Shown in pieces: positions 27,823-64,000 of a stretch of DNA of 64,000 bases. Made by a program: the position numbers and the translations under genes. The DNA is from a virus. A model generated the notes under the pieces. It did not search any database, was not told where the DNA came from, and was given only the letters and a program-made list of their open reading frames with translations. The stretch covers positions 106,136 through 170,135 of the IMG/VR virus record IMGVR_UViG_3300037483_000594; one strand, given 5' to 3'. Positions within the stretch are counted from its first letter, which is position 1. Each line of letters begins with the position of its first letter.

Positions 27823-29613
27823 ATGGGCTCGATAGCATCAGTCTCCGCTCTCTGGGAGAAAGCCGGTCTACTCTGGAGAGCACGCTACGATTCTCCCCAG
27901 TCTGTCGCCAGAGACGGCGGCACACTAGTCGGCTCCCCAACGTTTTCTTCAAGAGGCATTGAGCTCAACGGAGTGAATCAGCACGTCTCTTATGTCAACA
28001 AGCCTATCGGTCGCTTGAACGGCAAGGGTTTCATTGTCGTCAGGTTTACCCCGGAGTTTGCGTGGAACGAGGATGCGACCAGATACTTTTTCCGCTCCAC
28101 TTCTGGTTACGCCAGCCCTAATCAGATTTCTTTCAGTAAAGGCAATTTGGCGGCTAGTAGCGCAGTGCTTTTGTACATAGGTACGGGGTACGCATATTGT
28201 GCTGGGGCTGACTTTTCCGCTTTCTGGTTGAACGGACAAGAGAATTGTTTTGTTATTTCGTTGAATGGGATTTCAAGTGCTATGTGGTTGAATGGGAATA
28301 GTTTAGCCGTTTCAGATACGGCAATGGGCAATAATAGTCTCAGTGGAATTTTCATAGGTTTGGCAGGTAACTCGTACAAAGGTGCGATAAAAGAAATCCT
28401 GATCGGTAACAGATCACTCACGTCTGAGGACGCAGCCAGATTCTACGCCAACGACTGGGAGCAGCGGGCCGATAGTTCTCGTTTCATCGTCTCTTTGCCA
28501 AGCGAGCTGTCTTACAGGAAACCTACCGATCAGCAACTGTTGCCTGATGGTGACATGGAAGCAGTAGACGTTTTATCCTGGACAGTGGCAAATCTTGCCG
28601 TTCCAACTAAGCAGACAGCAAGCCCTCATGGTGGTGTGCGAAATCTTAGAGTTGCTTATGGCGGGGCGGGGAGCCCTTATGTATATCAGACTTTACTTAC
28701 GGTCGGATATACTTATAGGGTCAGCGGCTGGGCTAGAGGAAACAACTTGCAACCGGGTCCGGCAGTTTATAATGCTGGAACTGCTTTGTGGACCGGCACA
28801 GCTTCTCCGATTTGGCAGTATTTTGATGTCACATTTGTCGCCACCGCAACTACCTTGCGATTGTATTCTCGTGGGGTTGACGCTACTGATTATGCGGAAT
28901 ATGACGATATCTTCCTTGAGGAGATTCAAGCTGTCACTGAAACTGGTGGGCAGATCTCCTCAGTCTCTGGTGTGAAAGACGTTCTCCTCGGCTCTAATGG
29001 GCAGACTGCGTCGGAGTTTCCAACTGCGAAAGATTGCTGTCTCTCCTTCGATGGTGGGGATACCCTTACTATCCCGCACAACGACGCCCTGAGTTTCACA
29101 GACGGGATTACGGACAAGCCGTTTTCAATAGCGGTAATGTGCCAACTAGACACGGTTACTAGCAGAGCGATTGTGTCTAAAAACGGTACCAGCGGAATAT
29201 TGGCAGGAGAATACTTTCTGGCCAGTGTTATAGCTGGAGGAACACGTATTTACTTTGCTACCGTTGATGAGGTAAATAACGCTTATATAGCCAGATATGG
29301 TCTCGTTCCCTTAGGTAGAAAGTATGTGTGCTTAGTCGGAACGTACAGTGGTTCCAAAACGCCATCTGGGTTTCGAGTGTACACTGACGCACTGCGAATC
29401 GACACGACTGATGCTACAGCCGGGGCCTACGCAAGAATGAGAACCACCAACAAGAGTTTGCTCGTTGGTGGTTCTAACGCATCTTACACGGGCTATCTTG
29501 GCACTATGCCTGTTCGTCCAATCATTGAACCTGTCGAGTGGTCGCAGCTCGAGGTAGAGCAGATCACTGAGAAACTCAAGTCGCTGTATGCCCCAGCTAG
29601 GAGGGTGAGATGA
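27823..29613 (+). CDS. LamG/concanavalin-like plus carbohydrate-binding-module-like virion fibre or adhesin
   Basis: LamG-like segments (FNG/FDG..FSIAV..VGTY); CBM-like LLPDGDME..YRVSGWARG..YDDIFL; lower GC than flanks. Confidence 0.65.
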   Translation: MGSIASVSALWEKAGLLWRARYDSPQSVARDGGTLVGSPTFSSRGIELNGVNQHVSYVNKPIGRLNGKGFIVVRFTPEFAWNEDATRYFFRSTSGYASPNQISFSKGNLAASSAVLLYIGTGYAYCAGADFSAFWLNGQENCFVISLNGISSAMWLNGNSLAVSDTAMGNNSLSGIFIGLAGNSYKGAIKEILIGNRSLTSEDAARFYANDWEQRADSSRFIVSLPSELSYRKPTDQQLLPDGDMEAVDVLSWTVANLAVPTKQTASPHGGVRNLRVAYGGAGSPYVYQTLLTVGYTYRVSGWARGNNLQPGPAVYNAGTALWTGTASPIWQYFDVTFVATATTLRLYSRGVDATDYAEYDDIFLEEIQAVTETGGQISSVSGVKDVLLGSNGQTASEFPTAKDCCLSFDGGDTLTIPHNDALSFTDGITDKPFSIAVMCQLDTVTSRAIVSKNGTSGILAGEYFLASVIAGGTRIYFATVDEVNNAYIARYGLVPLGRKYVCLVGTYSGSKTPSGFRVYTDALRIDTTDATAGAYARMRTTNKSLLVGGSNASYTGYLGTMPVRPIIEPVEWSQLEVEQITEKLKSLYAPARRVR

Positions 29614-31538
29614 GCGATTTCATCGAGTACGCACAGTCGCTCGCTCCGAACATGCTAAGAGTGTTTGCTCGAGGCGACACGCTTGCTTACGACCAACACA
29701 ACAGATCAACTACTCCGGGTGCTGGAAACTTCTGGGTACCGAACGAGCATCAAGGTATTCAGTGCAAGACTGCTCCAATCACAATCGGCAAAGGGAATGA
29801 GCAGCTAACGACAGAGGGGACTCTATTCGTTGAGTGTACCCCGTTGAAAGACGCAGGGCCTAATCACACTCAACGGATAATGGAGAAGCATGTCGGTGTT
29901 CCAGAGTCTTGGCGGTTTTACATTCTAAAAACTCCAGCTAGATATCTAGTTTTCGGGACTGCTGGAGTACTCCCAACCCTGACCTACGATTGGCGTGGCA
30001 AAACGTGTCTTGCTGTGGTGTTTAGGCCGGGGCAGGCTCCTTTGTTTTATGCTGAGGGAGCCTTCATTGGTATCGGTAGCCTTGTTCATACCGTGGTCCC
30101 TGCCGATGTTGACATTAGTTTGGGGTCATATCATGTTCCGCAAGAACCCTTGTTGTCTCCTATGTATGTTGCAGGTCTATTCCCTGTACTAACTGGTCAG
30201 CAAATCTTCAACTTACACAAGAAATTCTTGGCTATGCCCCCAGTTGACAGAACGTCTCCTGTGGTAGGCAGAAAGATAGCCTCAAGGCCACCTACACCAG
30301 AGCTCGACGCGAAGTGCACAGAAGTCTTTGCTATGTCCAAGAACCTTGACGACGGCAAGATTCATGGTCTGAAGGGTGTTTCAGAGGGTACGATTGCTGG
30401 ACATATTGGAGTAAAAAACGACGGGCTGATTTATCCTGGGGCAATTTCCTGTAACAGCGACGCCCCTGTCGTAACACTGTCGAATGCTGCACAGATGGTG
30501 ACTTTAGATAACGGAGCAGTGGAGCAGATATTCACCCCGAAGTTTGACACAATACCGTCTCAGCGCTGGACGTTTGCTTGTAATGCAAGTCTTCGTTCAT
30601 ATATCTCGATGGCAGGCCCCACATTCTACGCCACTAAAGGCCAACCACTTCAGATTTTACCAAGTGTCACTGCTAACCCCCACGCAAGACACCTTACCAA
30701 TTTGCTACTGACCTGGTGGCTAGATGGCGCTACTCGACGATTTCAGTTTTTTATTGATGGTGTCTCGCAAGGAACCGGGACATACACCGATAACACCGTT
30801 CCTTCTCAGGCTAGCTTGTTCTTAGCAACGCTATCTGCACCGGGGCAGCTTCATCTAACCCGAACTTACAACACTCGAATCACCCCTGACGAAGCAAGGA
30901 CTCTCTATCTCCAGCACGCCGTCATAGCCGACGAGTTGAATTCCAGAAACTTTCCTCCTGTCTCTCTTGCAAACGTGACAGCAGGTGACTGTGGGCCTTG
31001 GCGAGTTATGAGCGGTATTCTTACTTGGCAAGAAGATGGGGCAAAAAGGAAGCTCGTTTCTGGACAAGTGAATAGTGCCGCTCGATACACGAGTCAGCAA
31101 GCTTATGGTGGTTGGTACTGGAAACTGAAGGGGCTAGATACCTACTATGTGCCTTTGTCCAGTGCTGCTGTCGCGGTTTCAGGATCATGGAATGGATACT
31201 ACGTCTATCTGTCGGCTGCTGGAGCTGTCCGTTTGTATCGTAGAACGGGTGCTGCATCTGTACTGATACAGAATACCGTCGATGGGTTTGTGGCTGCTGG
31301 AGTTGAATACTCGTTATTTCTCAGCAGACGGAGTGATGGACTGTTTACGCTGTGGGTAAAGGGTGGAGCTTACGCAGTGTGGACACAGGCGCTCACTGTC
31401 TTGGATGCCACACACACGGTTTCTGTTGCACACACTTGTTCTCTTCCTTCTGGAGCAGAGATTTCCAAGGTTCTTCGGTTCCCTCTCGGCGGAACACTGA
31501 CACCAAATGAAGTGCCTGAGCTTAGGGACGCGGCGTAG
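29610..31538 (+). CDS. Multi-LamG-like virion fibre or adhesin
   Basis: Repeated beta-sandwich segments (FFIDGV..YNTRITPDE); lower GC than flanks. Confidence 0.6.
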   Translation: MSDFIEYAQSLAPNMLRVFARGDTLAYDQHNRSTTPGAGNFWVPNEHQGIQCKTAPITIGKGNEQLTTEGTLFVECTPLKDAGPNHTQRIMEKHVGVPESWRFYILKTPARYLVFGTAGVLPTLTYDWRGKTCLAVVFRPGQAPLFYAEGAFIGIGSLVHTVVPADVDISLGSYHVPQEPLLSPMYVAGLFPVLTGQQIFNLHKKFLAMPPVDRTSPVVGRKIASRPPTPELDAKCTEVFAMSKNLDDGKIHGLKGVSEGTIAGHIGVKNDGLIYPGAISCNSDAPVVTLSNAAQMVTLDNGAVEQIFTPKFDTIPSQRWTFACNASLRSYISMAGPTFYATKGQPLQILPSVTANPHARHLTNLLLTWWLDGATRRFQFFIDGVSQGTGTYTDNTVPSQASLFLATLSAPGQLHLTRTYNTRITPDEARTLYLQHAVIADELNSRNFPPVSLANVTAGDCGPWRVMSGILTWQEDGAKRKLVSGQVNSAARYTSQQAYGGWYWKLKGLDTYYVPLSSAAVAVSGSWNGYYVYLSAAGAVRLYRRTGAASVLIQNTVDGFVAAGVEYSLFLSRRSDGLFTLWVKGGAYAVWTQALTVLDATHTVSVAHTCSLPSGAEISKVLRFPLGGTLTPNEVPELRDAA

Positions 31539-31550
31539 CGCGAGGTAGCG

Positions 31551-31754
31551 ATGAGAGCGATTGGAGGAACGGAGTCGGTGGTTACCTTCGGGTGGGTCGT
31601 GTGGGGCTACGCCATCGTGGCCGACACCACCCCCTGCGAGGACCTTGACCAACTTCGCGCAAAGCTGAAAGACGCCGAGCGGGACCCTTACGCCCCGGAC
31701 AAGCGAGAGCAACGGCGGCTCTGGCGAGAGCGCCAGCGCCAACTTGGGCGCTAG
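31551..31754 (+). CDS. Small hypothetical protein
   Basis: GAGG RBS; 67 aa. Confidence 0.4.
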   Translation: MRAIGGTESVVTFGWVVWGYAIVADTTPCEDLDQLRAKLKDAERDPYAPDKREQRRLWRERQRQLGR

Positions 31755-31798
31755 TCGCCAAGGAGCCCCACAGCGTATACTGTGGTCAGGAGAGAGAG

Positions 31799-32929
31799 AT
31801 GCTTCCAAAAGTAGCCGCGTTTCGGACCATGCTTCGCCGCCCTCTGGTTGACGTTACACCACCTGTGCTGACCAAAGAGGCCGCCCGGGGGTTGAAGAAG
31901 CTGGCACAGCTTTATGAGCTGGCGAAGCTGGCGCGGACCCCTCAGGAGGAGTTCGAGGAGGCAGCGCTGACAGACCCGGAGATTAACGCGGCGTTGGACT
32001 ACGAGCAGGCCATGGCGGAGAACGCTGTGCTGCGAGAGCAGGTGCTGGGGTTGCAGCAGTCACATGGAGAGCTGCAACAGCAGATGGCAGCGCAGGAGCA
32101 GCAGTTCGCCGGGGCACAGCAGCAGATGGCCATGATGCAACAGCAGCTCGACGCCGAGACCCAAGGGCGGCAGAGCGCGGTGCAGCAGGCTCTCATGGCC
32201 AAGGACTCAGAGCTGGCACAGCAGGCGAGCCTGCAGCTCCAGCGCCAGCAGCTCGCTGCTGCCGCCGACTCTCTGGCACTCCAACTCAAGCAGCTCGCCG
32301 CCACCCCCCCAGAGGCCCAAATGGCGCAGGCGGCAGAGGCAGAGCAGGCCACCGCTATCCAGGGAGACCAGGCAGCACTGCAGACCCTGCCCTCCAATCT
32401 CCGCAAGCAGGTGGTGGAGGCGCAAAACGCGGAGCAGACGGCGGCTGTCCAAGGCCAACAGGCAGAGCAGGAAGCTGCCATGGAGGTCACCGGCTCGGAC
32501 GTCAATGCTCTTCGCCAGGCTTTTCAGAAGACAGCGGCCAAGGTAGTACCCCCGCTCTCCGCGTTGGAAGAGTTGGCCCCCTTGCTCATCGCAACTCCGG
32601 CAGGTGCTGGGGTGGGGGCTGCACGGAGCCTGTTTCGGAAGTCGGACACCCCCACCGCGGCGGAGGGGCGGCTCGAGGCGCGGCTTGCAGAGCACGACGC
32701 GCAACTCGCGGAAAACGAAACCCCAGCACTCCGTGCCAGGAGAGAGATGATTTCTGCAGAACTCGCGGATAAGCGTGCGCTGCGCACCGACAGGGGGTAC
32801 GCGCTAAAAAGCGATGCTGTGGGTGGTGCCTTAGCAGGCTTGAGTGTGGGTGGTATTGCCTCCGGGCTTCGTCAGATTGCCCGGGGTTCTGACGAGTACG
32901 TTAAGCGGTTCGGGAAGGAACTGGTGTGA
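31799..32929 (+). CDS. Gln/Ala-rich coiled-coil KxA protein with glycine-zipper segments
   Basis: PKVAA, TKEAA, KKLAQ, AKLAR, QKTAA; GGALAGLSVGGIA. Confidence 0.65.
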   Translation: MLPKVAAFRTMLRRPLVDVTPPVLTKEAARGLKKLAQLYELAKLARTPQEEFEEAALTDPEINAALDYEQAMAENAVLREQVLGLQQSHGELQQQMAAQEQQFAGAQQQMAMMQQQLDAETQGRQSAVQQALMAKDSELAQQASLQLQRQQLAAAADSLALQLKQLAATPPEAQMAQAAEAEQATAIQGDQAALQTLPSNLRKQVVEAQNAEQTAAVQGQQAEQEAAMEVTGSDVNALRQAFQKTAAKVVPPLSALEELAPLLIATPAGAGVGAARSLFRKSDTPTAAEGRLEARLAEHDAQLAENETPALRARREMISAELADKRALRTDRGYALKSDAVGGALAGLSVGGIASGLRQIARGSDEYVKRFGKELV

Positions 32930-53008: not shown

Positions 53009-53515
53009 ATGCTACGAAGGCGCAAGGCGTCATGGGAGAGGTGTCACCCGGCGGTGAGCAGGAGGCAGCCTTTCGGGCTGCTGTGCAGCAACCCGGTGTT
53101 GGACGCGCTCACGGCAGAAGCGGCCCTTGCCGCCGTGTGTCTGCGTGAGTGCGCCCGAAGCGGGCTTATCCACTGCCCTGGGTGTGATCTGCCGATCAGC
53201 CCCGCAGACCTGCTGGGGCCAGCGGCTGCCGGGAGCCTGCTGCTGGGTGCTGTGCCGGGCCACCCGTTCTGCGGCGTGGTCCCGGAACCGCTGGCCCCCG
53301 ACTACTGGAAGCGTGAAAACGCAAAGGAGGTGAAGCGGTGCAAAGCCGCCGCGGAAGACAGCTACTTCGAGTGGGTGGAGTCCCGCACAGACAAAGACTG
53401 TCTGAGCTACTGCCCCGTGTGTGACAGGCCGTTTGACCCCCTAACACCACATGCCATGGCGTGCTTTTTAAACGGTGGGGTGCCTGGGCATCCCTGCAGA
53501 CTGGAGGAGCAATGA
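53009..53515 (+). CDS. Cys/His-rich protein with two CxxC..PGHP(F)C repeats
   Basis: CPGCDLP..VPGHPFC and CPVCDRP..VPGHPC; ATGA-coupled to the MoxR gene. Confidence 0.7.
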   Translation: MLRRRKASWERCHPAVSRRQPFGLLCSNPVLDALTAEAALAAVCLRECARSGLIHCPGCDLPISPADLLGPAAAGSLLLGAVPGHPFCGVVPEPLAPDYWKRENAKEVKRCKAAAEDSYFEWVESRTDKDCLSYCPVCDRPFDPLTPHAMACFLNGGVPGHPCRLEEQ

Positions 53516-54714
53516 ATCTCGCAGACTTGACGAAACTCGTGCGGACGTGCGTGGAGACCAGGGTCCCGGTGATGTTGAGCGGGCCGCCTGGGGCGGCCAA
53601 GACCGAGTCTTTGGAGCAGCTTTCCACGGAGCTGGAAGCGGGGTTTGTCCCGGTGGCGGTGGCGACACGTCCGGCTGAGGACTTCTCGGGGATCGCTGTC
53701 CCCGAGAACATGGTGACGACCTTGGTGACCAAGGTCGCCTCCAACTTTGCGGAGACAGGGGAGGTTCAGTGGGGAAAGATCGCCGCTGAACTCCAGAAGC
53801 CCTCGGCTTCGCAGGGGGTGCGCCAAGAGCCTATGTCCTGGCTCACCCGCGCTATCCGGTTGGGGGAGACGCGCCCCGGAGGGTGCATCGTACTCCTGGA
53901 CGAGTTCGGGTGCGCGAAGGCCTCTACGCAGGCGGCGATGCTCTCGCTTGTCCAGAGCCGGTACTGCGGCGACACGCGCATCCCCCCCACCGTGGCCTTT
54001 GTGGCGGCCACGAACCCAGTGGATCAGTCTGCTGGCGGGTGGGAGCTGCCGCTTCCCACCATCTCTCGGTGGGTTCACGTCCCCTGGCCCGGGCCTTCCA
54101 CCGACGAGTGGACTTCTTGGCTCCTCAACAAGTCTCTCTCCGGTTCCGCCGAGGTGTGGCGCGGAAAGGCCGGGCAAGAGGTCCGTGCGCTCGTTGCCGG
54201 GTTCCTCAACAAGCTGCCACACCTGCTTTGTGAAGTGCCGTCTTACGCGGCAAACAACGGGGCCTACCCCTGCCCCCGTAGCTGGTTCAACGGGGCCTTG
54301 CTACTCGCGGCCTTGCGCGCCCAGGGGTGCTCTGCCACCCTGCAACACACCGCGCTCTCCGGCGCTGTTGGTTCGGGGGTGTCCACCCAGTTTTTCGCTT
54401 GGGTCGAGGAGTCTGGGCTGCCTGACCCGGACGAAATCCTGCGCGACCCCAAAGCCTGGACCCCACCTGCCGGTCGAGCGGACAAGACCATGGCCATCCT
54501 GCTCGGGGTCACCTACGCCGTCGCGGGAAAGCCAACCCAGACACGGGTGGACAAAGCGCTCGACGCGATCATCCGCGCTGCCGACGCTGGGCAAGCCGGG
54601 GTTGCCATCACGGTCGTCAAGCCCTTCCTAACCAACCCCGCCATCCTTCCCTTCCTCAAGGAGCCCACCCAGCTCGCAGCACTCACGGACATCTTGGGAC
54701 TACCCCGTTTCTAG
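53512..54714 (+). CDS. MoxR-type AAA+ ATPase
   Basis: GGAGG RBS; Walker A GPPGAAKT, Walker B VLLDEF, AATNP, ISRW, CPRSW. Confidence 0.88.
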   Translation: MNLADLTKLVRTCVETRVPVMLSGPPGAAKTESLEQLSTELEAGFVPVAVATRPAEDFSGIAVPENMVTTLVTKVASNFAETGEVQWGKIAAELQKPSASQGVRQEPMSWLTRAIRLGETRPGGCIVLLDEFGCAKASTQAAMLSLVQSRYCGDTRIPPTVAFVAATNPVDQSAGGWELPLPTISRWVHVPWPGPSTDEWTSWLLNKSLSGSAEVWRGKAGQEVRALVAGFLNKLPHLLCEVPSYAANNGAYPCPRSWFNGALLLAALRAQGCSATLQHTALSGAVGSGVSTQFFAWVEESGLPDPDEILRDPKAWTPPAGRADKTMAILLGVTYAVAGKPTQTRVDKALDAIIRAADAGQAGVAITVVKPFLTNPAILPFLKEPTQLAALTDILGLPRF

Positions 54715-54742
54715 CCCTTCCTCTGGGGGGGCCGGAGGACAC

Positions 54743-55381
54743 ATGAAACACGCAACTCTCCCAGTTTCACAGACATTGTTTTGCTGTGGGGAGCACCACA
54801 CCATTTACATTTCAAAAAGTGGTGCGTTTAGCAGCCCTCAGCATAGTGGTGCCAGGGTGCGGGGGCTGGATGTAGCCGCTCAGCTCACCGGGCGTACCTC
54901 ACCGTGTCAGCTTATCTTCGCGTTTTTGCGCGGAGAGGTGACATTGGACGCCGTGGTCGAGGTTGACACTCTTGAGCTCTCCGGTGAATTTATTTCGTTT
55001 TTGTGCGCCATCCACGTAAAGAGGAGCTCGTCCACTGTGGTGTCGTGGCGTACTGTTGACCGGCGGGTGGCATTCTACGACTTCGTGTACAAGGATCTGA
55101 CTTTTTATCTGGTGCCGCCGCGCCGGGTAAACCCGACAGACGTTGCACTGGCCCTGCAGGACCGCGAACTGCAGGCTAACGAGTACTTCGATATGCGGCG
55201 GCAGGCGCTGGGTAGGCACGCATTCAGCCGCAAGCACACCATGAGCACTTTTGACCAAACAGCTACGCTGACGCGCGTGACGCTTCCGCTAACCCAGCGT
55301 GTCCGGCTTATGGCTGAGGTCGACAAGCTCTACGTAGTGCCACGACTGATGGTTTACACCGTGTCTGAGGAGGTAATTTGA
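54743..55381 (+). CDS. Array paralogue 1 (divergent subgroup)
   Basis: CCGEHH..SKSG..PQH..DV..SPC; YFDMRRQALG..HTMS. Confidence 0.75.
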   Translation: MKHATLPVSQTLFCCGEHHTIYISKSGAFSSPQHSGARVRGLDVAAQLTGRTSPCQLIFAFLRGEVTLDAVVEVDTLELSGEFISFLCAIHVKRSSSTVVSWRTVDRRVAFYDFVYKDLTFYLVPPRRVNPTDVALALQDRELQANEYFDMRRQALGRHAFSRKHTMSTFDQTATLTRVTLPLTQRVRLMAEVDKLYVVPRLMVYTVSEEVI

Positions 55382-56031
55382 GAAGACAAGACCAGCTCGC
55401 CGATCGGGCCGCCGTCAGGCAACCCGTCCTTTGCTGTGGGGAGCAACACGTCATCCACATTTCAAAAAGTGGAAGGTTCAGCAGCCCCCAGCACACAGGG
55501 GACAGGGTGCGGGCCTTTGACGTTGTCGAACAGCTCCAAGGGCGTGTTTCCCCGTGCATGACCGTCCTTCGGTTTTTGCAGGGGGAGCTGCCAACGGAGG
55601 AGGCGATGAGGTTCCCGGGGCTCACGTCTGAGTTCTTGTCCTTGCTGGGGAGGGTCACCGCGTCCAGGGTTGTGCGACACCCCCCGGTTGAGAGGCCGGG
55701 TCCGTATACGCGGTTTGTGCACTTCTTGCACGACGACCTGACCTTTCACCTGCGTGGGCTCCCCCCGGATGTGTTGGCCGGTCCTGTCCCGCGCGCAGAG
55801 GGGCGGTTGTGGAGCCTGCTGAAGACCGGCGACGTGAAGGTGTACTTTGACCAACGGAGACGCCTGTTGGGCACCCGGGCGTTTAGTCATGCGCACACCA
55901 TAAGCAAGCTTGCGATCACCGACTCCACGGTGGTCACGTGGCTACCCTTACTTTGTACGAAGATCGTGGCACTTGTGGAACGGGCAGAGCCGCAACCAAG
56001 ACTACGAATCTTTCTGAAGGGGATGCGATGA
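55378..56031 (+). CDS. Array paralogue 2 (divergent subgroup)
   Basis: CCGEQH..SKSG..PQH..DV..SPC; YFDQRRRLLG..HTIS. Confidence 0.75.
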   Translation: MRRQDQLADRAAVRQPVLCCGEQHVIHISKSGRFSSPQHTGDRVRAFDVVEQLQGRVSPCMTVLRFLQGELPTEEAMRFPGLTSEFLSLLGRVTASRVVRHPPVERPGPYTRFVHFLHDDLTFHLRGLPPDVLAGPVPRAEGRLWSLLKTGDVKVYFDQRRRLLGTRAFSHAHTISKLAITDSTVVTWLPLLCTKIVALVERAEPQPRLRIFLKGMR

Positions 56032-57233
56032 AAGAAAAACAAGTACAGATCATTGATGCCAGCCGTCCGGACATACGGTTCGACTGCGCACGTTCGCACC
56101 TTGCGCAAGAGCTTCCGTACCTGGCCTTCGCCCTGTTTTCACTGCGTGGCCCGGTGCTTCGTCCGGGTATGGGCACGGTGGGGATAAGTAGCCGCGGCGT
56201 GATCTACGCTGACCCAGAGTTTTTGAAGAGTAGGGACGTGCCTCCGGCGTTGCTGGAGCACGAGGTCTGGCACCTTGTGCTCAACCATGCGGGCAGAGCC
56301 TCCGCTTTCCGCGCAGAGCAACGTTTGTGGAACGTGGCTGCCGATCTTGAGATCCACGGGGGCATCTTGAGGACCGGGTCCTTGGGTGCCCTCACCACCC
56401 TGATACAGCACGAGGGGTCACCGCTGACCCCCAAGCTGTTCGGGTTCCCGGAGGGGAAGACCGCTGAGCAGTACTACACCATGCTCCTGCAGAACAACGT
56501 GGTTGTTGTGAGTGCAGAGTTCGGCTCTGCGGCGGACGGGGTCCCTCGTGACTACGAGGGGCACGTGGCCGGGGACCCCGACTGCGGGGAGATGTCCGAG
56601 CTCCAGCAGGAGCGTCTTCGCGACGAGGTAGCAAAGGCCTCGGCCGGGCAACGCCCAGGGACGGTACCGTCGGGGGTTTTGTGCTGGGCGGCGTCCCGGC
56701 TAAAGGCGGCGAAGCTCAACTGGAAACAGGTCCTGTCACGGCTTCTTCACGTCTCGATGTTGTCCTCCTTGGGGGACGACGAGCCTACCTACTCGCAGGT
56801 GAACCGGCGCAACCCCGGAGGGGCCCGGGGGTACCTGTCCCCGGCTATCGTGGACGTCGACCTGGCCGTGGGTGTGGTGGTGGACACCTCCGGGTCCATG
56901 GCGGGCGAAGCCCTCGACAACGCACTCTCCGAAACCCTGGGCATCGTGCGCGCGTTCGGTGGCGCGGTTCTTACGCTGATGTGCGACGCTGAGGTCTACG
57001 GATGGAAAAGCGTGCAGTCTGCTGCCGACTTTGACGTGCGTGGAGGTGGCGGGACCGACATGCGTGAGGGCATAGAAGCGGCGGAGAAGAACCGGGACGT
57101 GCAAACCGTGGTTGTCATCACCGACGGGGACACACCGTGGCCCGAGCACCGGGGGCGAAAGCCCCTGGTGGTGGTGCTGGTGGACGGACACCGGGAGACC
57201 CCATCATGGGCCAAAACAGTGATCGTGGAGTAG
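56028..57233 (+). CDS. HExxH metallopeptidase-like plus vWA domain protein (DUF2201-like), MoxR partner
   Basis: HEVWH, WNVAADLEI, MIDAS VDTSGSM, GGGGTDM, ITDG. Confidence 0.88.
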   Translation: MKEKQVQIIDASRPDIRFDCARSHLAQELPYLAFALFSLRGPVLRPGMGTVGISSRGVIYADPEFLKSRDVPPALLEHEVWHLVLNHAGRASAFRAEQRLWNVAADLEIHGGILRTGSLGALTTLIQHEGSPLTPKLFGFPEGKTAEQYYTMLLQNNVVVVSAEFGSAADGVPRDYEGHVAGDPDCGEMSELQQERLRDEVAKASAGQRPGTVPSGVLCWAASRLKAAKLNWKQVLSRLLHVSMLSSLGDDEPTYSQVNRRNPGGARGYLSPAIVDVDLAVGVVVDTSGSMAGEALDNALSETLGIVRAFGGAVLTLMCDAEVYGWKSVQSAADFDVRGGGGTDMREGIEAAEKNRDVQTVVVITDGDTPWPEHRGRKPLVVVLVDGHRETPSWAKTVIVE

Positions 57234-57838
57234 TGTGCTTCAACTGCGGTGTAGACGTGCACAGGCTTCGGGTTTCGGGGCGTGGCCGCATCACTCTCCT
57301 GGACTACGACTCCGGTCACCAAGTTCGCGATGTCCTAGCTGCCCTTCGCAGGGAGCCCACGTCGACATGTGCTCTTGTCATGAGCACTTTGCGCGAACGC
57401 GCGTTTCGCGCTTTTTACTGGACGTCTCTGAGCGTTTTATTTGCTCAGTTCGCAAACAAGCGGATGAGCCGCCGTGTGCACGAGGAGCCCAGCGGCCCGG
57501 TGGACGGGCTTCTGGCAGAGGAGATGGCCGCCTGCGAGTTTACGGGCTCTTGGCATACGACGCCTGCTGGCCTCCATGTCCAGGGGTCCCTGTACCCTTT
57601 CCGCCCTGTTGAGTTCCTGCAGTGCAGACGCCGTATCTTGGGAGAGGACGCCCTGCGCCACGGAGTGACAATGAGCACCCACAGCCACCCCTGGACCCAC
57701 GAGGCCTACTACCTGCCCCTGCAGCTACTGTCCCCTGACGATGTCCGAGTGCTCGTCTTGGCTAAGGCACACTGCTACGCCTCAAACCTGTCGCTATCAC
57801 TGCTTTTTAAACTGCGAGCGCGCACCGCTAGAAAGTAG
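57206..57838 (+). CDS. Array paralogue 3
   Basis: FNCGVDVHRLRVS..LLDYDSGH..DV..STC; EFLQCRRRILG..TMS. Confidence 0.8.
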   Translation: MGQNSDRGVVCFNCGVDVHRLRVSGRGRITLLDYDSGHQVRDVLAALRREPTSTCALVMSTLRERAFRAFYWTSLSVLFAQFANKRMSRRVHEEPSGPVDGLLAEEMAACEFTGSWHTTPAGLHVQGSLYPFRPVEFLQCRRRILGEDALRHGVTMSTHSHPWTHEAYYLPLQLLSPDDVRVLVLAKAHCYASNLSLSLLFKLRARTARK

Positions 57839-58177
57839 AAAGATGATCATCTCCTTCCGGTGCGGTGCAGAGATGCACCGGTTACGTGTCTCGCGTCGTG
57901 GTAGCCTGACCCTTCTGGACTACGACGCCGGTCACCGCGCCCGTGATGTCATGGCCGCCATCGGCGAGGAGCCTCCGTCAACCTGTGGCTCGATCTTGCG
58001 CACCTTACGCACGCGAGCGTTCGTTTCTTATTGTGAGGAGGACGCACTAAACTTGCTGCTTTCTCGTCACGTTAGCCTCCGTTTAGCGCGTATTCGGCTG
58101 CCCGAGGACGCTATCAGCCCGGTAGACGGGCTTTTGGCAGCGGAGATGGCCGCCTGCGAGTTTACGGGCTCTTGGCA
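57520..58177 (+). repeat. 36-bp identical direct repeat shared by paralogues 3 and 4 (57520-57555 and 58142-58177)
   Basis: GGAGATGGCCGCCTGCGAGTTTACGGGCTCTTGGCA occurs twice. Confidence 0.85.
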
Positions 58178-58478
58178 CATGCGGACGACACGGCTTCAGG
58201 TCAATGCAAGCACGTACACATTCAGTCCTGTTGAGTTTCTGAGATGCAGACGCCGTATCTTGGGAGAGAACGCGCTACGATACGGGGTAACGATGAGCAC
58301 CGGTGTCATCTACGAAGACGGCAGTGAGCCGAAACGCTACCTGCCACTGCAGCTACTACCCTCCGGCACGGTGCGTGTGCTCGTTCTGTACTCGGGGGAG
58401 GGCTGTTATGCCTCGAGCATGTCAATGTCAGCCTTTCTTCGACACCGAGTTCGTGCAGGCTTCACGCCTTCAAGGTGA
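57843..58478 (+). CDS. Array paralogue 4
   Basis: FRCGAEMHRLRVS..LLDYDAGH..STC; EFLRCRRRILG. Confidence 0.8.
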   Translation: MIISFRCGAEMHRLRVSRRGSLTLLDYDAGHRARDVMAAIGEEPPSTCGSILRTLRTRAFVSYCEEDALNLLLSRHVSLRLARIRLPEDAISPVDGLLAAEMAACEFTGSWHMRTTRLQVNASTYTFSPVEFLRCRRRILGENALRYGVTMSTGVIYEDGSEPKRYLPLQLLPSGTVRVLVLYSGEGCYASSMSMSAFLRHRVRAGFTPSR

Positions 58479-58484
58479 AAGACA

Positions 58485-59126
58485 ATGATCATCCCCTTTC
58501 TGTGCGGCAAGGAGACGCACAGGCTACATGTCTCACGGCGCGGTCGCATCACTCTCCTAGACTACGGTGCCGACCACCGAGCCCTCGACGTCCTGGCTAC
58601 GCTGCGCGGAGCGTCCTTGTCCGAGTGTGCCTTGGTCTTGCGGGCGGTGCGCGCACGGGCCTTCGTTCCTTTTGGTGGAGAGAAACTGCACCAGTTGTTT
58701 GCGGAACACGCAGCCAAGCGTAGAGAACGCCGTCGGGTGCACGCAGAGTGGCAAAACCCTGTGCACGAACTCGTGAGACACGAGCTGGCTTCCTGCGGTC
58801 TTACACGCGAATGGTACCTTGGCGCTACCGGTCTCCAGATTGACGGGTGGCTGTACTCCATCTACCCGGTGGAGTTCCTGCGTTGTAGGCGGCTTGTCCT
58901 TGGGGAACACGCCCTACGGCACGGGCTAGCCATGAGCACCTACAGCCAAAACGGTGACCATGGACACGGCGGGGCCTTTCTCATGCCGCTTAGCCTCACG
59001 CGCCACGCCACAATGCGTGTCCTCGTCTTGGGGCCTAACCAAAGCTACGTTGCAACCCTCTCGCAGGATGCGTTTCTTCAACAACGGCGGGCCAACCAAG
59101 CGCTTTGCGCAGGAAGGGTAGCATGA
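58485..59126 (+). CDS. Array paralogue 5
   Basis: FLCGKETHRLHVS..LLDYGADH..SEC; EFLRCRRLVLG. Confidence 0.8.
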   Translation: MIIPFLCGKETHRLHVSRRGRITLLDYGADHRALDVLATLRGASLSECALVLRAVRARAFVPFGGEKLHQLFAEHAAKRRERRRVHAEWQNPVHELVRHELASCGLTREWYLGATGLQIDGWLYSIYPVEFLRCRRLVLGEHALRHGLAMSTYSQNGDHGHGGAFLMPLSLTRHATMRVLVLGPNQSYVATLSQDAFLQQRRANQALCAGRVA

Positions 59127-59797
59127 TCATCTCTTACTGGTGCGGGGCGAAGGTCCACCACATCCGTGTTCGTCGCGGGCGCATAACGTTTCTGGACTAC
59201 GACACACGCCACCAAGCAGAAGACGTCGTGCGAGCCCTCCAGCAGGCCCCCATGTCCTCTTGCGCAACCCTCCTGCACGCCCTGCGGACCCGAACTACCA
59301 CCCAAGACGCACCGGACGAGGTGGCAGACCTTTTCTTTGAGATCACACGCGTGCGTGTTGAGCGTTTTGCGGGCAACCTGGCCTTTTCAAACCCGACAGC
59401 TCTTGAAAACTTGCTCACCACCGAACTAGGCCGCTGGCCCGAGCGATGGACAGTCCAGCCAAGGAAGCTGGTGGTAGATGACCGGCTCTTTGTGTTCGAT
59501 GTCGTGGAGTTCCTTCGGTGCCGACGCTTTGTGCTGGGGTGCCGTGCTGTGCTCCCTGGGGTACGGATGGGTGTGGACAACGGAGAGGGGCTGCTCCTTC
59601 CGCTGACACTGGGCCCCGGCGACCGGACCATGCGTGTCCTCGTCGTTCCGTGGTCGAGTGGGTGTTACACCGTTCCTTATGTAACCGACGCTTTTCTGCG
59701 AAGGAGGTCGCATGTCGATCGTCAGGTTCCTTTGCGGGGGCAGCATCCACCGCCTTTTGGTCAGAGGCCCCCACCTCACACTGCTGGACTACGATGA
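59123..59797 (+). CDS. Array paralogue 6
   Basis: YWCGAKVHHIRV..FLDYDTRH..SSC; EFLRCRRFVLG..MG. Confidence 0.8.
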   Translation: MIISYWCGAKVHHIRVRRGRITFLDYDTRHQAEDVVRALQQAPMSSCATLLHALRTRTTTQDAPDEVADLFFEITRVRVERFAGNLAFSNPTALENLLTTELGRWPERWTVQPRKLVVDDRLFVFDVVEFLRCRRFVLGCRAVLPGVRMGVDNGEGLLLPLTLGPGDRTMRVLVVPWSSGCYTVPYVTDAFLRRRSHVDRQVPLRGQHPPPFGQRPPPHTAGLR

Positions 59798-60413
59798 CGC
59801 ACACCGCGGGCAGGACGCCGCGGAGTTCATCACAACCGGGAAAATGTCTACTTGCGCTTGCTTTTTGCACAACTTGCAGAAGACAACACTGGCGGCGACA
59901 TCAAATGATCTGCCGGTAGCGCTACGGAACGTGTTGGGCCCTCTTCGAGACAAAAAGTATATCCGTAGCTGCCACCGTCTTGACTCACGGGAAAGGGGGC
60001 GGAGGACCCCTGTTGACTTTGTGCTGTGTGCCTTGCGCCAAGAGAGCGCTGCCTGCTCTATCCCCTGGGAGTTTTTCAGCCACCGTGTAGTGACGCCATG
60101 GTCTACTAAAACCGGGGTATCCTCCATTTTGGTTGGTGGCTTCACGGTGCACACAAAGAGGTTTATGGAGTGTCGCCGTGCTCTCGTGGGGGGGCATTCG
60201 GCGGTATTGCGCTGTACCATGGGAGTGCACCTCGCAGAGCTGAGACACCTGGTGCTCCCGCACGCGGTTGACACGCGCACCCAGACTCTGAAAGTCCTGC
60301 GGATAAACACGTGCACGATGGACATCAATGAGAGTTGGACCACGTGTGCCCTTTATCAAGCACTCCGGGACAAAAAACAGGAGTACAGGGAGTCGCTCTT
60401 CCAACGCTGTTGA
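59712..60413 (+). CDS. Array paralogue 7
   Basis: FLCGGSIHRLLV..LLDYDDAH..STC; FMECRRALVG..TMG. Confidence 0.8.
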   Translation: MSIVRFLCGGSIHRLLVRGPHLTLLDYDDAHRGQDAAEFITTGKMSTCACFLHNLQKTTLAATSNDLPVALRNVLGPLRDKKYIRSCHRLDSRERGRRTPVDFVLCALRQESAACSIPWEFFSHRVVTPWSTKTGVSSILVGGFTVHTKRFMECRRALVGGHSAVLRCTMGVHLAELRHLVLPHAVDTRTQTLKVLRINTCTMDINESWTTCALYQALRDKKQEYRESLFQRC

Positions 60414-60422
60414 GGAGGTTCA

Positions 60423-61112
60423 ATGGAGATCGAGTACCCGTGTGACGGAGGGACGCACCGGCTGCATGTCTCCGCAAAAGGGAGAGTCCGGTTGTTGGAC
60501 TACGACGCAGCGCACAACGCGCAAGATGTAACAAGCCTGCTATCCGGGCACCAGGTGTCGACTTGTGCTGAGATAATCCAGTTTCTGCGCGCAACGCCAG
60601 GTGAGATTCGGTTCTGGACGACGGACTACCCGTTCGACTCGCCCTTTTTACAAGAGGTTTGGGAAAAAAGATCTGCACGGTTACACGTAAAACTTCAGAA
60701 GCAGTACAGGCCTACTACCAAGGACTTCGTTCTCCGCGCGTTAGAACAAGAGGTGCGCGCCTGTTCGATTTCCTGGGATGTGTTTAGTGAACAAGCGCTT
60801 CGGCACGGAGGTATCTCTGAGCGAATCATCATAGCTGGGGGTGTTCCTGTGTTTGCACACAAGTTTATGCAGTGCCGCCGTGCCCTCCTGGGAAAGAAGT
60901 CGACGGTGTTGAGTCAGACCATGGGAGTGTATTTCCCAGAGAAGCATCTCCTGTTACTCCCGTGTGAGATCATGAGAAACGGGGTTGTGCGCCTTCTTCA
61001 AATACACACACTTAAGCTGCACGCTTACGCATCGCAAGTCACGTGTAGCGGTTATCGAGCGATGCGTGCGCGGCTCTTGGAGGAAGCGAATGGTGATAGG
61101 GTACCCGTGTAG
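60423..61112 (+). CDS. Array paralogue 8
   Basis: YPCDGGTHRLHVSAKG..LLDYDAAH..STC; FMQCRRALLG..TMG. Confidence 0.8.
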   Translation: MEIEYPCDGGTHRLHVSAKGRVRLLDYDAAHNAQDVTSLLSGHQVSTCAEIIQFLRATPGEIRFWTTDYPFDSPFLQEVWEKRSARLHVKLQKQYRPTTKDFVLRALEQEVRACSISWDVFSEQALRHGGISERIIIAGGVPVFAHKFMQCRRALLGKKSTVLSQTMGVYFPEKHLLLLPCEIMRNGVVRLLQIHTLKLHAYASQVTCSGYRAMRARLLEEANGDRVPV

Positions 61113-61800
61113 CGGAGAGGTGCACAGGCTGCGCGTCTCCGCAAAGGGGAGGATCAGGTTGCTGGACTACGACGAGGCTCATCAGGCTCGCGACGTTGTT
61201 CAAAGGCTGGCCGCAGACACCGAGTCGACGTGCACGTGTTTCATTAGGTTTTTGCACTCTTCGCGAGCACTCTTTCCTGCAAGTTTCCCGACGTCTCTCC
61301 AACATTTTTCGCTGGAAATAACCAAAAAACGGCGGGAGCGCCGCGACTTCACCGTAAACCTGCGGATGTCACCGCTCAGGTTCGAACAGCGCGTTTTGCA
61401 GCGCGAGGCTGAGGCTGCTGGCTTTCCTGTGGGTGCTGAAGCCCTATGGAATCTGAACGCCCGTACCGGTAGGGAGGATCTGTTCTTTGACATTGGCGGC
61501 ACGCCGGTGTTCCTGCCCGAGTTCAGACAGTGCAGACGTCTGCTCATGGCGGGGGCCGCCGCTGTGCTTAGCAAACCGATGGGGTTTGTCCGTGGGGACT
61601 TGTGGTACCTGCCTTGTTCGGTGGAGGGCGAGGAGGTGCGCTTGCTTTGCGTGCAGCGGGGCACCTTGGTAACAGAAAGGGTATCGGTGCACCTTGAGAC
61701 GTACCACGAACTGCGGAAAGGAACGCGTGATCTGCTACCCGTGCACCAACTCGCAGCACCGGATGCTGGTGTCTCCGAAGGGGAGCGTTCGCTTTCTTGA
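61090..61800 (+). CDS. Array paralogue 9
   Basis: YPCSGEVHRLRVSAKG..LLDYDEAH..STC; EFRQCRRLLM..KPMG. Confidence 0.8.
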   Translation: MVIGYPCSGEVHRLRVSAKGRIRLLDYDEAHQARDVVQRLAADTESTCTCFIRFLHSSRALFPASFPTSLQHFSLEITKKRRERRDFTVNLRMSPLRFEQRVLQREAEAAGFPVGAEALWNLNARTGREDLFFDIGGTPVFLPEFRQCRRLLMAGAAAVLSKPMGFVRGDLWYLPCSVEGEEVRLLCVQRGTLVTERVSVHLETYHELRKGTRDLLPVHQLAAPDAGVSEGERSLS

Positions 61801-62404
61801 CTACGACAGCACGCACCGGGCGCAAGACGTCTTGGCTATGTTGTCGGGCGGGGAGGAGTCCACGTGTCTGGCTATTCTCAACTTTCTGCGCACAGGGCAC
61901 CAAGCTCAAACGCCAAAGACATATGATCTCTCTCAGTTTCTGAATGAGATCACGCGAAAAAGATTCGAGAGGATTCCGGCGCGGGGCCAACCACACATAT
62001 CAAAAACAGGTTTCGCGGTACGAGTCTTGGCGTATGAGGCCTTCGCCGCGCGTCTTTATGCCACGGAGCACTGGCGTATGGGTGACGCCTCGGTGGATCT
62101 GCGGGTCTGGAGACGGCACACGGGAGAACAGTGCTTCCGTGTTTTCGGAGAGTGGGTCCCTGTCCGCGAGTTCAACGCGTGTCGCAGGCGCCTTATGGGG
62201 AGCGCTGCCGCCGTGCTGAGCAAGCCGATGGGGCTTGTGTTCGGAGATGTCTGGCTGCTGCCGTACGCGGCCTACACCAACGTTGTGTATCTGGTGCGCC
62301 TGCACATTCCAGAGCTGCAGGCGGGGAGCGTGTGTACCACGCTCGACATCTACCGCGGCCTGCAGAACAAGGAGGAGTGCTACAGTGAGAGTCTTTTCGT
62401 ATGA
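61727..62404 (+). CDS. Array paralogue 10
   Basis: YPCTNSQHRMLVSPKG..FLDYDSTH..STC; EFNACRRRLMG..KPMG. Confidence 0.8.
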   Translation: MICYPCTNSQHRMLVSPKGSVRFLDYDSTHRAQDVLAMLSGGEESTCLAILNFLRTGHQAQTPKTYDLSQFLNEITRKRFERIPARGQPHISKTGFAVRVLAYEAFAARLYATEHWRMGDASVDLRVWRRHTGEQCFRVFGEWVPVREFNACRRRLMGSAAAVLSKPMGLVFGDVWLLPYAAYTNVVYLVRLHIPELQAGSVCTTLDIYRGLQNKEECYSESLFV

Positions 62405-62987
62405 GTGCGAAGAGGGAGAGCACCGACTGGTGGTGTCTCCGAAAGGACGGGTACGGTTTCTTGACTACGACGCAGCCCACGCCGCACGCGACACACTTCG
62501 CCACTTGCAAGGTCGGGGGCGTTCAACGTGTCGGGTGCTGCAATGCACCATCCGCGAGAGGTGGGACAGAATCTCGGCTACTGCCTCGGTGCAGGACCTG
62601 GTCGAAGAGTTCAGGCTAAAGCGTCAGCTTCGTCGCGAACTCGCGCCCGTCCCGGCGCTACCCGCCCTAGACCGCGTGTACGCTATGCGCCTCGGGTTTT
62701 TGCGTGGGGCCCTCAGCCACGAACTGGCACGGGGAGTGGGAATGCCCCTCACTCTCGCGCGAAAAATCATCAACGCGGAATTGAAACCAGCATCAATGCA
62801 GGTCGCGGTGTACGACGGCCAGTACATTGACTACGCACAGTTCTGGCGCTGCCGATCCTGGGCCTTCGGGCGGGGGGCCATCCGGTTCAAAAATACGCTT
62901 GGGGTTGTCGAAGGGAACGACCTCCAGATTCCTACTTGCGTCCACCACGGGCACTGGGTTCACTTTCTGTACATCCACTGCCCATAG
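62385..62987 (+). CDS. Array paralogue 11
   Basis: YECEEGEHRLVVSPKG..FLDYDAAH..STC; FWRCRSWAFG..TLG. Confidence 0.8.
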   Translation: MRVFSYECEEGEHRLVVSPKGRVRFLDYDAAHAARDTLRHLQGRGRSTCRVLQCTIRERWDRISATASVQDLVEEFRLKRQLRRELAPVPALPALDRVYAMRLGFLRGALSHELARGVGMPLTLARKIINAELKPASMQVAVYDGQYIDYAQFWRCRSWAFGRGAIRFKNTLGVVEGNDLQIPTCVHHGHWVHFLYIHCP

Positions 62988-62994
62988 GTGAACA

Positions 62995-63603
62995 ATGCAC
63001 AGCTACCACAGCTACCCCTGTGAAGGGGAGGTACATCAAGTTCGGATCTCGAAAGGAAGAATACGGTTCGTACACTACGACGACGCGCACAGAGCGCGTG
63101 ACGTCGTGAGGAAGCTACGTGGTGAGCCTGTCTCGACGTGTCTCCAAGCGCAGGAGGCTATCCGTGGGGAGAGCCCGGCACCAAGCTCGTTTGCCAGGCT
63201 GCTCAGCAACGAGCTGACGCAGAAGCGCTTTTCCCGCGCCAAGTGCGTCGAGCTTCCGGCTCGACCGTTTACAAAGAGCGCGGTCAGGCTACAGCAAGCA
63301 CGGTTTCGGTTTCTCTGCAAGGCGCTCAGCCACGAGCTAGCGAGGGTGACGGGCATCGACGTCTCCGAAGCGGCCGAGTACATAGCCTACTGCTCGCGCT
63401 CTACGTCACTCTACCTCGCGGTGGTCAGTGGGCAGGAGCTGGGCTGCGAGGACTTCTGGCGGTGTCGTGCCCACTTCTTGGGGCGTTTCTCCGCGGACCT
63501 CAGACACACCATGGGCTTCCAGATCGGGGATTTGCTCTACGTGCCTGCCGTGGTTGAGCATGATGTCATCCACAAGACCGTGTACATCACGATTCCGTAT
63601 TAG
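62995..63603 (+). CDS. Array paralogue 12
   Basis: YPCEGEVHQVRISKG..FVHYDDAH..STC; DFWRCRAHFLG..TMG. Confidence 0.8.
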   Translation: MHSYHSYPCEGEVHQVRISKGRIRFVHYDDAHRARDVVRKLRGEPVSTCLQAQEAIRGESPAPSSFARLLSNELTQKRFSRAKCVELPARPFTKSAVRLQQARFRFLCKALSHELARVTGIDVSEAAEYIAYCSRSTSLYLAVVSGQELGCEDFWRCRAHFLGRFSADLRHTMGFQIGDLLYVPAVVEHDVIHKTVYITIPY

Positions 63604-63627: not shown

Positions 63628-64000
63628 ATGCCCATTACGAGTGACCAGATAGCCCTTTCCCACCAACAGATGGCCATGGGCTTCGCCGCACACCAGAACA
63701 CCGCCAGCATGTTGAGTTCTCAACGTTTCGGCGGGTACAGCATGGGGCCCGTGGGGCAGCCCTACCCCGGGCTTCAGCCTTACCAGCCGTTCGGGATGCC
63801 CCCCGGCGGGGGGCTCGCACAGATGGCAATGGCCTACCCGCGTTGGGCCCCGGGGTCCAACATAGGCCAGGCCTTCGCCGAGCAGTCTTTGGGTGCCGGG
63901 TTGGGCATGATGTCGGGGGGGCTGAACGCTCTGAGCAACACCGCAGGGGTCGTGACCGGGGCGGCTGGGCTGGCCAGCCCCCTGCTGGGGCTCCTGGGGG
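63628..64000 (+). CDS. 5' part of a Gly/Ala/Met-rich protein, possibly the tape measure protein (runs off the window)
   Basis: GGGAG RBS; MPITSDQIALSHQQMAMG... open to the window end; composition only. Confidence 0.5.
   Translation, partial: MPITSDQIALSHQQMAMGFAAHQNTASMLSSQRFGGYSMGPVGQPYPGLQPYQPFGMPPGGGLAQMAMAYPRWAPGSNIGQAFAEQSLGAGLGMMSGGLNALSNTAGVVTGAAGLASPLLGLLG

Follow-up and report, generated by a model that had tools for sequence, protein, structure and literature searches.

The stretch of DNA analysed here (the window) is the final 64 kb of a phage record in IMG/VR, IMGVR_UViG_3300037483_000594, which originates from sediment metagenomes. The record is linear, 170,135 bp long, ~94% complete by estimate and has a G+C content of ~60%. 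Near its end, at window positions 53009-63603, lies a tightly packed block of plus-strand genes encoding, in order, a double-CxxC protein, a MoxR-type AAA+ ATPase, two paralogues of a small Cys/His protein, a DUF2201 protein in which a zincin-like peptidase is fused to a von Willebrand factor A (vWA) domain, and ten further paralogues (Table 1). A first reading made from the DNA letters without database searches (the sequence-only reading) had proposed this gene order and content, and the open reading frames (ORFs), Pfam, PHROG and an alignment of all 12 paralogues (A1) agree with it in every item. Here we describe the Cys/His module shared by the paralogues, its association with MoxR-DUF2201 pairs in phages and bacteria, the domains to which it is attached, and what the module may do for the pair.

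Both members of the pair retain their signature motifs. The ATPase matches Pfam AAA_5 (E 5.3e-07, 30.2 bits, cut-off 22) and, across residues 1-372, phrog_1297 (E 3.8e-42), and its translation keeps Walker A (GPPGAAKT) and Walker B (LLDEF) intact. The peptidase-vWA protein exceeds the cut-off for both DUF2201_N (PF13203, 63.5 bits) and DUF2201 (PF09967, 57.9 bits), matches phrog_1314 (E 9e-40), and has an intact HExxH motif and an intact DxSGS metal-ion-dependent adhesion site (MIDAS), with H78, E79, H82, D286, S288, S290, T343 and D366 invariant in a 35-sequence alignment (A3). Because the HExxH, MIDAS and Walker motifs are all intact, the machine that these two proteins would form looks active. 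The double-CxxC protein matches no family in Pfam or PHROG. In PADLOC-DB 2.0, which covers host defence systems only and is uninformative on counter-defence, DUF2201, the paralogues and the CxxC protein had no match, and MoxR matched IetA alone (E 0.0055 over 36 residues).

Junctions between genes of the block range from -86 to +28 nt, a GGAGG-like site lies ahead of most starts, and scans of 50-64 kb for sigma-70 promoters and terminators gave results at chance level only; we therefore read the whole block as a single unit held together by translational coupling. A GTTATAAGAA motif seen at other places in the genome is absent from the block. The stop of the double-CxxC gene overlaps the MoxR ATG by 4 nt, and it is through translational coupling only that we provisionally assign this gene to the system.

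Table 1. Genes of the coupled block and the module-bearing reverse transcriptase of the same phage. Positions are those of the window unless a contig is named; A1, alignment of all 12 paralogues; HMM, hidden Markov model; AF2, AlphaFold2.
Feature	Position	Strand	Description	Basis
Double-CxxC protein	53009..53515	+	168 aa; CPGC and CPVC; first gene of block	ORF and translation
MoxR-type AAA+ ATPase	53512..54714	+	400 aa	Pfam AAA_5, phrog_1297
Paralogue 1	54743..55381	+	212 aa; between MoxR and DUF2201; canonical module with His in PQH	A1; module HMM E 5e-17
Paralogue 2	55378..56031	+	217 aa; TTG start overlaps paralogue 1 stop	A1; module HMM E 8e-19
Peptidase-vWA protein	56028..57233	+	zincin-like peptidase (DUF2201_N, HExxH) fused to vWA (DUF2201)	Pfam, phrog_1314
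Paralogue 3	57206..57838	+	210 aa	A1; 53% identity to paralogue 4
Paralogue 4	57843..58478	+	211 aa	A1
Paralogue 5	58485..59126	+	213 aa; modelled copy	AF2 model
Paralogue 6	59123..59797	+	224 aa; tail overlaps paralogue 7 by 86 nt	A1, junctions
Paralogue 7	59712..60413	+	233 aa	A1
Paralogue 8	60423..61112	+	229 aa	A1
Paralogue 9	61090..61800	+	236 aa; tail overlaps paralogue 10 by ~74 nt	A1, junctions
Paralogue 10	61727..62404	+	225 aa; GTG start inferred	A1
Paralogue 11	62385..62987	+	200 aa; GTG start inferred; 38% identity to paralogue 12	A1
Paralogue 12	62995..63603	+	202 aa; last copy	A1
RT-module protein	G000:C1:85498-86583 (= L177 3499-4584)	minus	RCGKHLH...FDH...SPC; ~20 kb upstream of window	

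The Cys/His module and the twelve-copy array

The 12 paralogues, 200-236 aa in length, begin with a module of ~60-100 residues that reads C-x4-H ... [H/C] ... C and is followed by a basic KRxxR helix. A module HMM matches all of them (E 1e-15 to 9e-21), and the invariant columns of A1 are C14, H19, D43, S53, C55, R152 and P182. The sequence-only reading had described a C-x4-H..H..C module and, further on, an F..CRR..LG motif, each common to the whole array. Both Cys residues and the His of C-x4-H do hold in 12/12 copies, but at the third position only copies 1-2 have His; the residue in copies 3-12 is Tyr (LLDYDxxH), with a His four residues downstream. Likewise, F..CRR..LG is a property of copies 3-12, copies 1-2 carrying YFD[MQ]RR..LG without the Cys. 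The more general proposal of a conserved N-terminal module with a variable remainder is upheld, since the attached part differs by lineage, being a phage domain, ankyrin repeats or a reverse transcriptase (RT). Neither Pfam, PHROG, NCBIfam nor PADLOC holds a match for the paralogues, so that the possibility, raised in the same reading, of their belonging to a characterised and unrelated family found no support in these collections. Judged by its sequence, we regard the module as an unannotated family.

Relatives of this family are distant. When a profile of the 12 copies was compared with 1.8 billion representative proteins, 19 distant relatives were recovered (E 1e-7 to 6e-4), all without a Pfam family and all aligning over the first ~100 residues, that is, the N-terminal module, only. 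A word-index search with A1 returned nothing beyond the window's own proteins, a related-locus search with a single paralogue gave no match, and none came from 50,697 phage records when two module proteins of the single-copy kind served as tblastn queries. The SWIM zinc finger (PF04434) did not match at E <= 0.1, nor at E <= 0.01 in 30 family members, and its ligand order differs from that of the module.

The family is defined by a C-x4-H, a third His/Cys ~14-18 residues on, a last Cys ~18-22 residues later and a basic helix next; a module profile was iterated over all fetched loci. Among the 75 modules compared, the first Cys is kept in 74/75, the His in 75/75 and the last Cys in 73/75, and an Arg in the basic helix that comes after is near-invariant. 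At the third ligand position His is found 55 times, Cys 8 times and Tyr 10 times, the ten Tyr modules being copies 3-12 of the window. The swap from His to Cys, which occurs in the array of a related phage (L014), is of a kind that would be tolerable for a metal ligand. From conservation alone, the module probably binds zinc.

As Cys and His are the sole near-invariant residues of the module itself, one could suppose that the metal site is the true substrate of the ATPase-vWA pair, which would insert or exchange its metal as do the CobST/BchID chelatases, NorQD and CoxDE. MoxR-vWA pairs have indeed been linked repeatedly to the maturation of metal centres (listed in PMC7159879). Simple structural zinc sites, however, normally need no ATPase, 10/12 copies have Tyr as the third ligand, and the peptidase domain and the 12-fold expansion with divergent C-terminal domains are left unexplained. 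We consider metal loading very improbable and count it among the weaker rivals.

Structure prediction gave confident models of the module. The AlphaFold2 model of paralogue 5 (predicted local distance difference test, pLDDT, 91.3; predicted template modelling score, pTM, 0.61) comprises a three-stranded beta unit with helices, which is the module, joined through an extended helical linker to an alpha/beta domain at the C-terminus. The module alone, modelled from an 83-sequence alignment (pLDDT 91.8, pTM 0.73), again forms a three-stranded beta unit followed by helices. No convincing relative emerged from fold searches with the whole model (Foldseek against the PDB, best E 0.41; VIA-align, Z 3.5; ESM Atlas, template modelling score <= 0.35; BFVD, E 0.026) or with the module alone (best Z 3.5, Foldseek E >= 1.1), and an ESM Atlas feature search gave no usable match. 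A PDB sequence profile match to 7zok_A (E 0.024) was discarded: it covers a 28-residue zinc-ribbon-like hairpin and the alignment enters the chain's His-tag. The module is thus a candidate for a new small metal-binding fold, of which weak fold searches fall short of proof.

Pairwise identity among the 12 copies spans 16-53%, and the most similar copies are neighbours: 1-2 (37% identity), 3-4-5-6, 7-10 and 11-12. Such a pattern fits serial tandem duplication. For the closest pairs dS is ~0.9 or saturated, indicating that the duplications are old; the longest DNA repeat in the array is 203 nt at 78% identity, and neither DNA repeats nor dS give any sign of recent exchange between copies. The ratio dN/dS reaches its minimum, ~0.2-0.35, over the module, against 0.5-0.7 for the middle region, with synonymous sites near or at saturation even in the closest pairs. 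All 12 frames are intact, and we conclude that every copy is maintained. In a search of the whole 170-kb record the full-length family was confined to the array, and the domain at the C-terminus of these copies, F..CRR..LG included, was found nowhere else in the fetched loci or the representative library.

Paralogue 6 runs into the gene after it over window positions 59712-59797, and paralogue 9 does so over 61727-61800, in each case in a different frame and over an unusual length. The unconserved tails of these two copies may represent read-through after an earlier stop was lost. One contig of 330 nt (depth 5.5), assembled from a second sediment sample, joins 57906 to 58549, skipping exactly one 642-nt unit and fusing paralogues 4 and 5 in register. 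This junction may be a copy-number polymorphism or an assembly artefact, and we take it as a weak hint of copy-number variation. Downstream of the array, a gene at 63628-63999 with a low-complexity product rich in Gly, Pro, Met and Gln runs off the end of the record, which places the array at the contig end; the record stops 400 nt past paralogue 12.

Linkage of the module to the MoxR-DUF2201 pair

The sequence-only reading had suggested that an HMM of the copies be used to look for co-occurrence with MoxR/DUF2201, and had mentioned a similar motif as a single gene beside such pairs in some bacteria. Both ideas proved well founded, and the module is tied to the pair well beyond the window. Nine of the 19 distant relatives had a readable gene context. 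Two of these (P0021, P0022) occupy the slot that separates an AAA_5 ATPase from DUF2201, their stops overlapping, and another two (P0027, P0029) lie directly downstream of DUF2201. P0011 sits on a 29-kb phage contig with the ATPase-DUF2201 pair, a second DUF2201 and three further module copies, while the 7-kb contig of P0013, on which the pair is not seen, corresponds to a portion of the P0011 region. A further relative (L007) has no pair within 10 kb. For two of the nine, the contigs are too short to judge.

To survey the pair itself, 80 viral loci were fetched from IMG/VR with the DUF2201 alignment, and 10 kb was searched on each side and on both strands. The module is present in 35/80, every copy is on the DUF2201 strand, and 38/43 copies are <=1 kb away. 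The order MoxR-X-DUF2201, where X is the module gene, occurs in 16 loci and MoxR-DUF2201-X in 10, with a few loci having 2-3 copies. In 80 bacterial DUF2201 loci, mostly from Actinomycetota and searched over a 6-kb flank, the module was found on the same strand in 50/80. Writing x for the module gene, M for MoxR and D for DUF2201, the bacterial orders are xMD (36), xxMD (10), xxxMD (2) and MDx (2).

On a DUF2201 tree made with FastTree, presence of the module is scattered, with >=10 changes forced by supported branches, and the window's DUF2201 groups with those of two other phages, L014 and L013, with full support. This scatter implies that the linkage is ancient rather than the hitch-hiking of a single lineage. 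The association of module and pair is old and widespread but not obligatory. The module profile had no match in the whole genomes of five cultured phages that carry the pair (phiFa, Presley, PA5oct, Slicko01 and MTATph1; 5/5).

Given these absences, the paralogues could also be an independent multigene family of small nucleic-acid-binding or host-takeover proteins, adjacent to the pair simply because both belong to an early or middle block of genes. The module is missing from many DUF2201 loci, one module gene (L007) lies beside methyltransferases without MoxR in 10 kb, and binding to nucleic acid would fit the basic helix that comes after the module. The adjacency is nonetheless seen again and again, in phages as in the chromosomes of actinobacteria, with the genes always co-oriented, often with stop/start overlap and across a deep DUF2201 tree, and the slot between ATPase and vWA protein is the commonest position of the module. 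Mere co-location is therefore another of the weaker rivals, and we judge it improbable.

In most loci the neighbours of the pair are replication and recombination genes (RecT, SSB, helicase, polymerase, Dam). The slot between ATPase and DUF2201 can also be occupied by unrelated small genes, as in L011 6681-7732, L179 2465-2989 and L178 2046-3008; examples are Presley_32 and, in phiFa, RNase H. Accessory genes in general thus seem to insert at this point.

The large terminase encoded in the window is ~25% identical at most to that of any cultured phage, and megablast of the coupled block against the 50,697 phage records gave no DNA match. The window begins inside a gene for an RNA polymerase beta'-like protein (Rpb1-domain-5; 2-4252) that is split by two intein-type insertions matching LAGLIDADG_3, Hom_end and Intein_splicing. 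At 28000-32000 there is a low-G+C island (0.49-0.53 against ~0.61), whose ORFs at 27823-29613 and 29610-31538 are large and without a Pfam family.

Attached domains and the proposed role of the module

The sequence-only reading had not recognised an expansion to 12 copies. Twelve is the highest number we have seen, but arrays as such occur elsewhere, with ~7 copies in L014 and 1-3 at other loci in phages and actinobacteria. In L014 (4632-7986; also L015, L016), the tandem module genes follow MoxR-DUF2201 and have Cys as the third ligand (PLDCSWEQ). The DUF2201 proteins of L014 and L013 are the two closest relatives of the window's (37% and 44% identical by BLASTP), and both loci have arrays. 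That of L013 (3337-4713) consists of three tandem paralogues of another small CxxC family (H.CxxC...WHIKV..H.P..G) located after DUF2201, with one module gene further on; the slot can thus house Cys-rich arrays of a second kind.

A module-only profile run over the whole record revealed a 13th copy in this phage, formed by the C-terminal ~100 residues of a 361-aa retron-type RT (RVT_1, E 2.9e-17; PADLOC RT_III-A, E 1.6e-34 over residues 4-236) whose gene is flanked by helicase-like and primase-like genes. In L014, a homologous RT with the same C-terminal module (2-688; 38% identity, E 4e-32) is encoded directly upstream of MoxR and overlaps the MoxR start. In actinobacteria, the module is found at ~residues 350-440 of proteins of 550-650 aa, with ankyrin repeats immediately after it and an uncharacterised region upstream. 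These proteins, annotated merely as 'ankyrin repeat domain-containing protein', have >2,000 homologues. Their genes occur on chromosomes and plasmids as 1-3 tandem copies upstream of MoxR-DUF2201 (L097-L176, for example L144 181-4639 and L174 1-4590), and cultured species of Streptomyces, Actinomadura and Nonomuraea have the operon. The module is thus carried by >=4 kinds of payload: the domain of the window's copies, a different C-terminal domain found in many phages, ankyrin repeats and RT.

Taken with the linkage to the pair, this variety of payloads leads us to favour, as the probable though by no means certain explanation, a model in which the module is a dedicated partner domain, a common handle that links attached domains to the MoxR/vWA/zincin machine, and in which the set of partners has been expanded to 12 in this phage. 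The handle would deliver its attached domain to the machine of ATPase, vWA and peptidase, be it the phage-specific alpha/beta domain in its 12 versions, the phage's retron-type RT or the ankyrin repeats of actinobacteria. With a handle-bearing set of 12, or 13 with the RT, one machine could serve many partners. The machine might remodel the partner or cleave it through HExxH, or the partner might itself act as a targeting adaptor; the ankyrin fusions favour an adaptor, and the RT fusion together with the peptidase domain favours a client.

Several observations weigh against a dedicated handle. The double-CxxC protein has no relative in any fetched locus. The searched flank is without a module in 45/80 viral and 30/80 bacterial DUF2201 loci, so the pair works without the module or with other partners, and the L007 module, which adjoins methyltransferases, has neither MoxR nor DUF2201 within 10 kb. 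Tyr at the third ligand position of copies 3-12 may mean that the site is rearranged or lost in most of the array. Both metal binding and docking on vWA or MoxR are proposed from sequence patterns; a complex prediction of DUF2201 (A3) with paralogue 5 (A2), run without controls, gave ipSAE values of 0.01 and 0.00, the mark being 0.32, and speaks neither for docking nor against it.

The same fusions admit a reading in which the module-bearing proteins are clients, the module being a recognition tag or pro-domain and the machine unfolding, maturing or cleaving whatever is tagged. On this view the RT and all 12 paralogues would be effectors whose activation or destruction is timed within the infection. 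The HExxH peptidase domain on the vWA partner, which is intact, and an invariant Arg in the basic KRxxR helix directly after the module, would suit such processing, and an RT enzyme with a terminal module looks more like cargo than like an adaptor. Known MoxR-vWA pairs do serve dedicated client complexes (CbbQO-Rubisco, NorQD, RavA-ViaA; reviewed in PMC7159879). The actinobacterial payload, however, consists of ankyrin repeats, which are typical binding modules rather than enzymes, a cleavage site is undefined, and the adaptor reading is equally compatible with these features. We hold the client reading to be possible but on the whole unlikely.

The handle model that we favour can also be carried further. 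The module could be a universal docking piece and the pair a programmable, ATP-driven remodeller or protease, supplied in this phage with 12 hard-wired specificities against host proteins such as defence factors, which the sequence-only reading had also named as possible targets. This is a speculative extension to which we give only modest credence. If true, the array would be a protein-level counterpart of the MoxR-vWA systems diversified by diversity-generating retroelements. Among gene pairs of large and N4-like phages that still lack an explanation, MoxR with zincin-vWA is one of the commoner, and many actinobacteria conserve it as well. With the module the pair gains a first candidate for an interactor, targets should become apparent from the payload domains, and the cultured actinobacteria offer a tractable entry.

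Comparison with known systems

Two parts of this picture are already known, namely the two-gene pair (PMC7824862) and the occurrence of MoxR-vWA systems with a third, diversifying component (PMC7159879). A limited full-text literature search found no description of the module, of its tie to the pair, or of the ankyrin and RT fusions. The pair of MoxR and metallopeptidase-vWA has been described from jumbo and N4-like phages, where a role in virion assembly was proposed (Iyer et al. 2021, PMC7824862). It comprises the same two families (PHROG 1297 and 1314; 'N4-like gp25' in Presley), adjacent and co-oriented, with HExxH and MIDAS. That pair, however, was presented as two genes and a third component was not named, whereas the window has two module genes inside the pair and ten after it. 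The proposed role in virion assembly fits less well here because in most loci examined the neighbours are replication and recombination genes rather than structural ones.

The 'ternary' conflict systems (Kaur, Burroughs, Iyer, Aravind 2020, PMC7159879) combine MoxR, vWA and a third diversifying component, and the systems described here resemble them in their three-part logic, their enrichment in actinobacteria and an occasional link to reverse transcriptase. The components differ. In the ternary systems the third component is a VMAP, beta-propeller or FtsH-like protein and effector domains are fused to the vWA, whereas here it is a Cys/His module and the vWA carries the DUF2201_N zincin. Consistent with this distinction, bpMoxR (PF20030) scores 13.8 bits on the window's MoxR, below its cut-off of 27, and no VMAP or propeller family was found in any gene of the block.

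The AAA+/vWA operon of the YehLMPQ type in E. coli includes a subunit with a SWIM zinc finger. It is similar to the block in having a zinc-finger gene beside a MoxR-class ATPase and a vWA gene, with large variable paralogues upstream. Its SWIM motif reads CxCxnCxH, in contrast to the C-x4-H...H/C...C of the module. By analogy, CbbQ-CbbO with Rubisco, NorQ-NorD, CoxD-CoxE and RavA-ViaA suggest how the machine might work, as each couples a MoxR-type AAA+ protein to a vWA adaptor with a MIDAS, which is directed at one particular partner. In those systems the vWA protein is without a peptidase domain and serves a single client; the pair described here, known from its genes, has a zincin domain on the vWA protein and many paralogous candidate partners.

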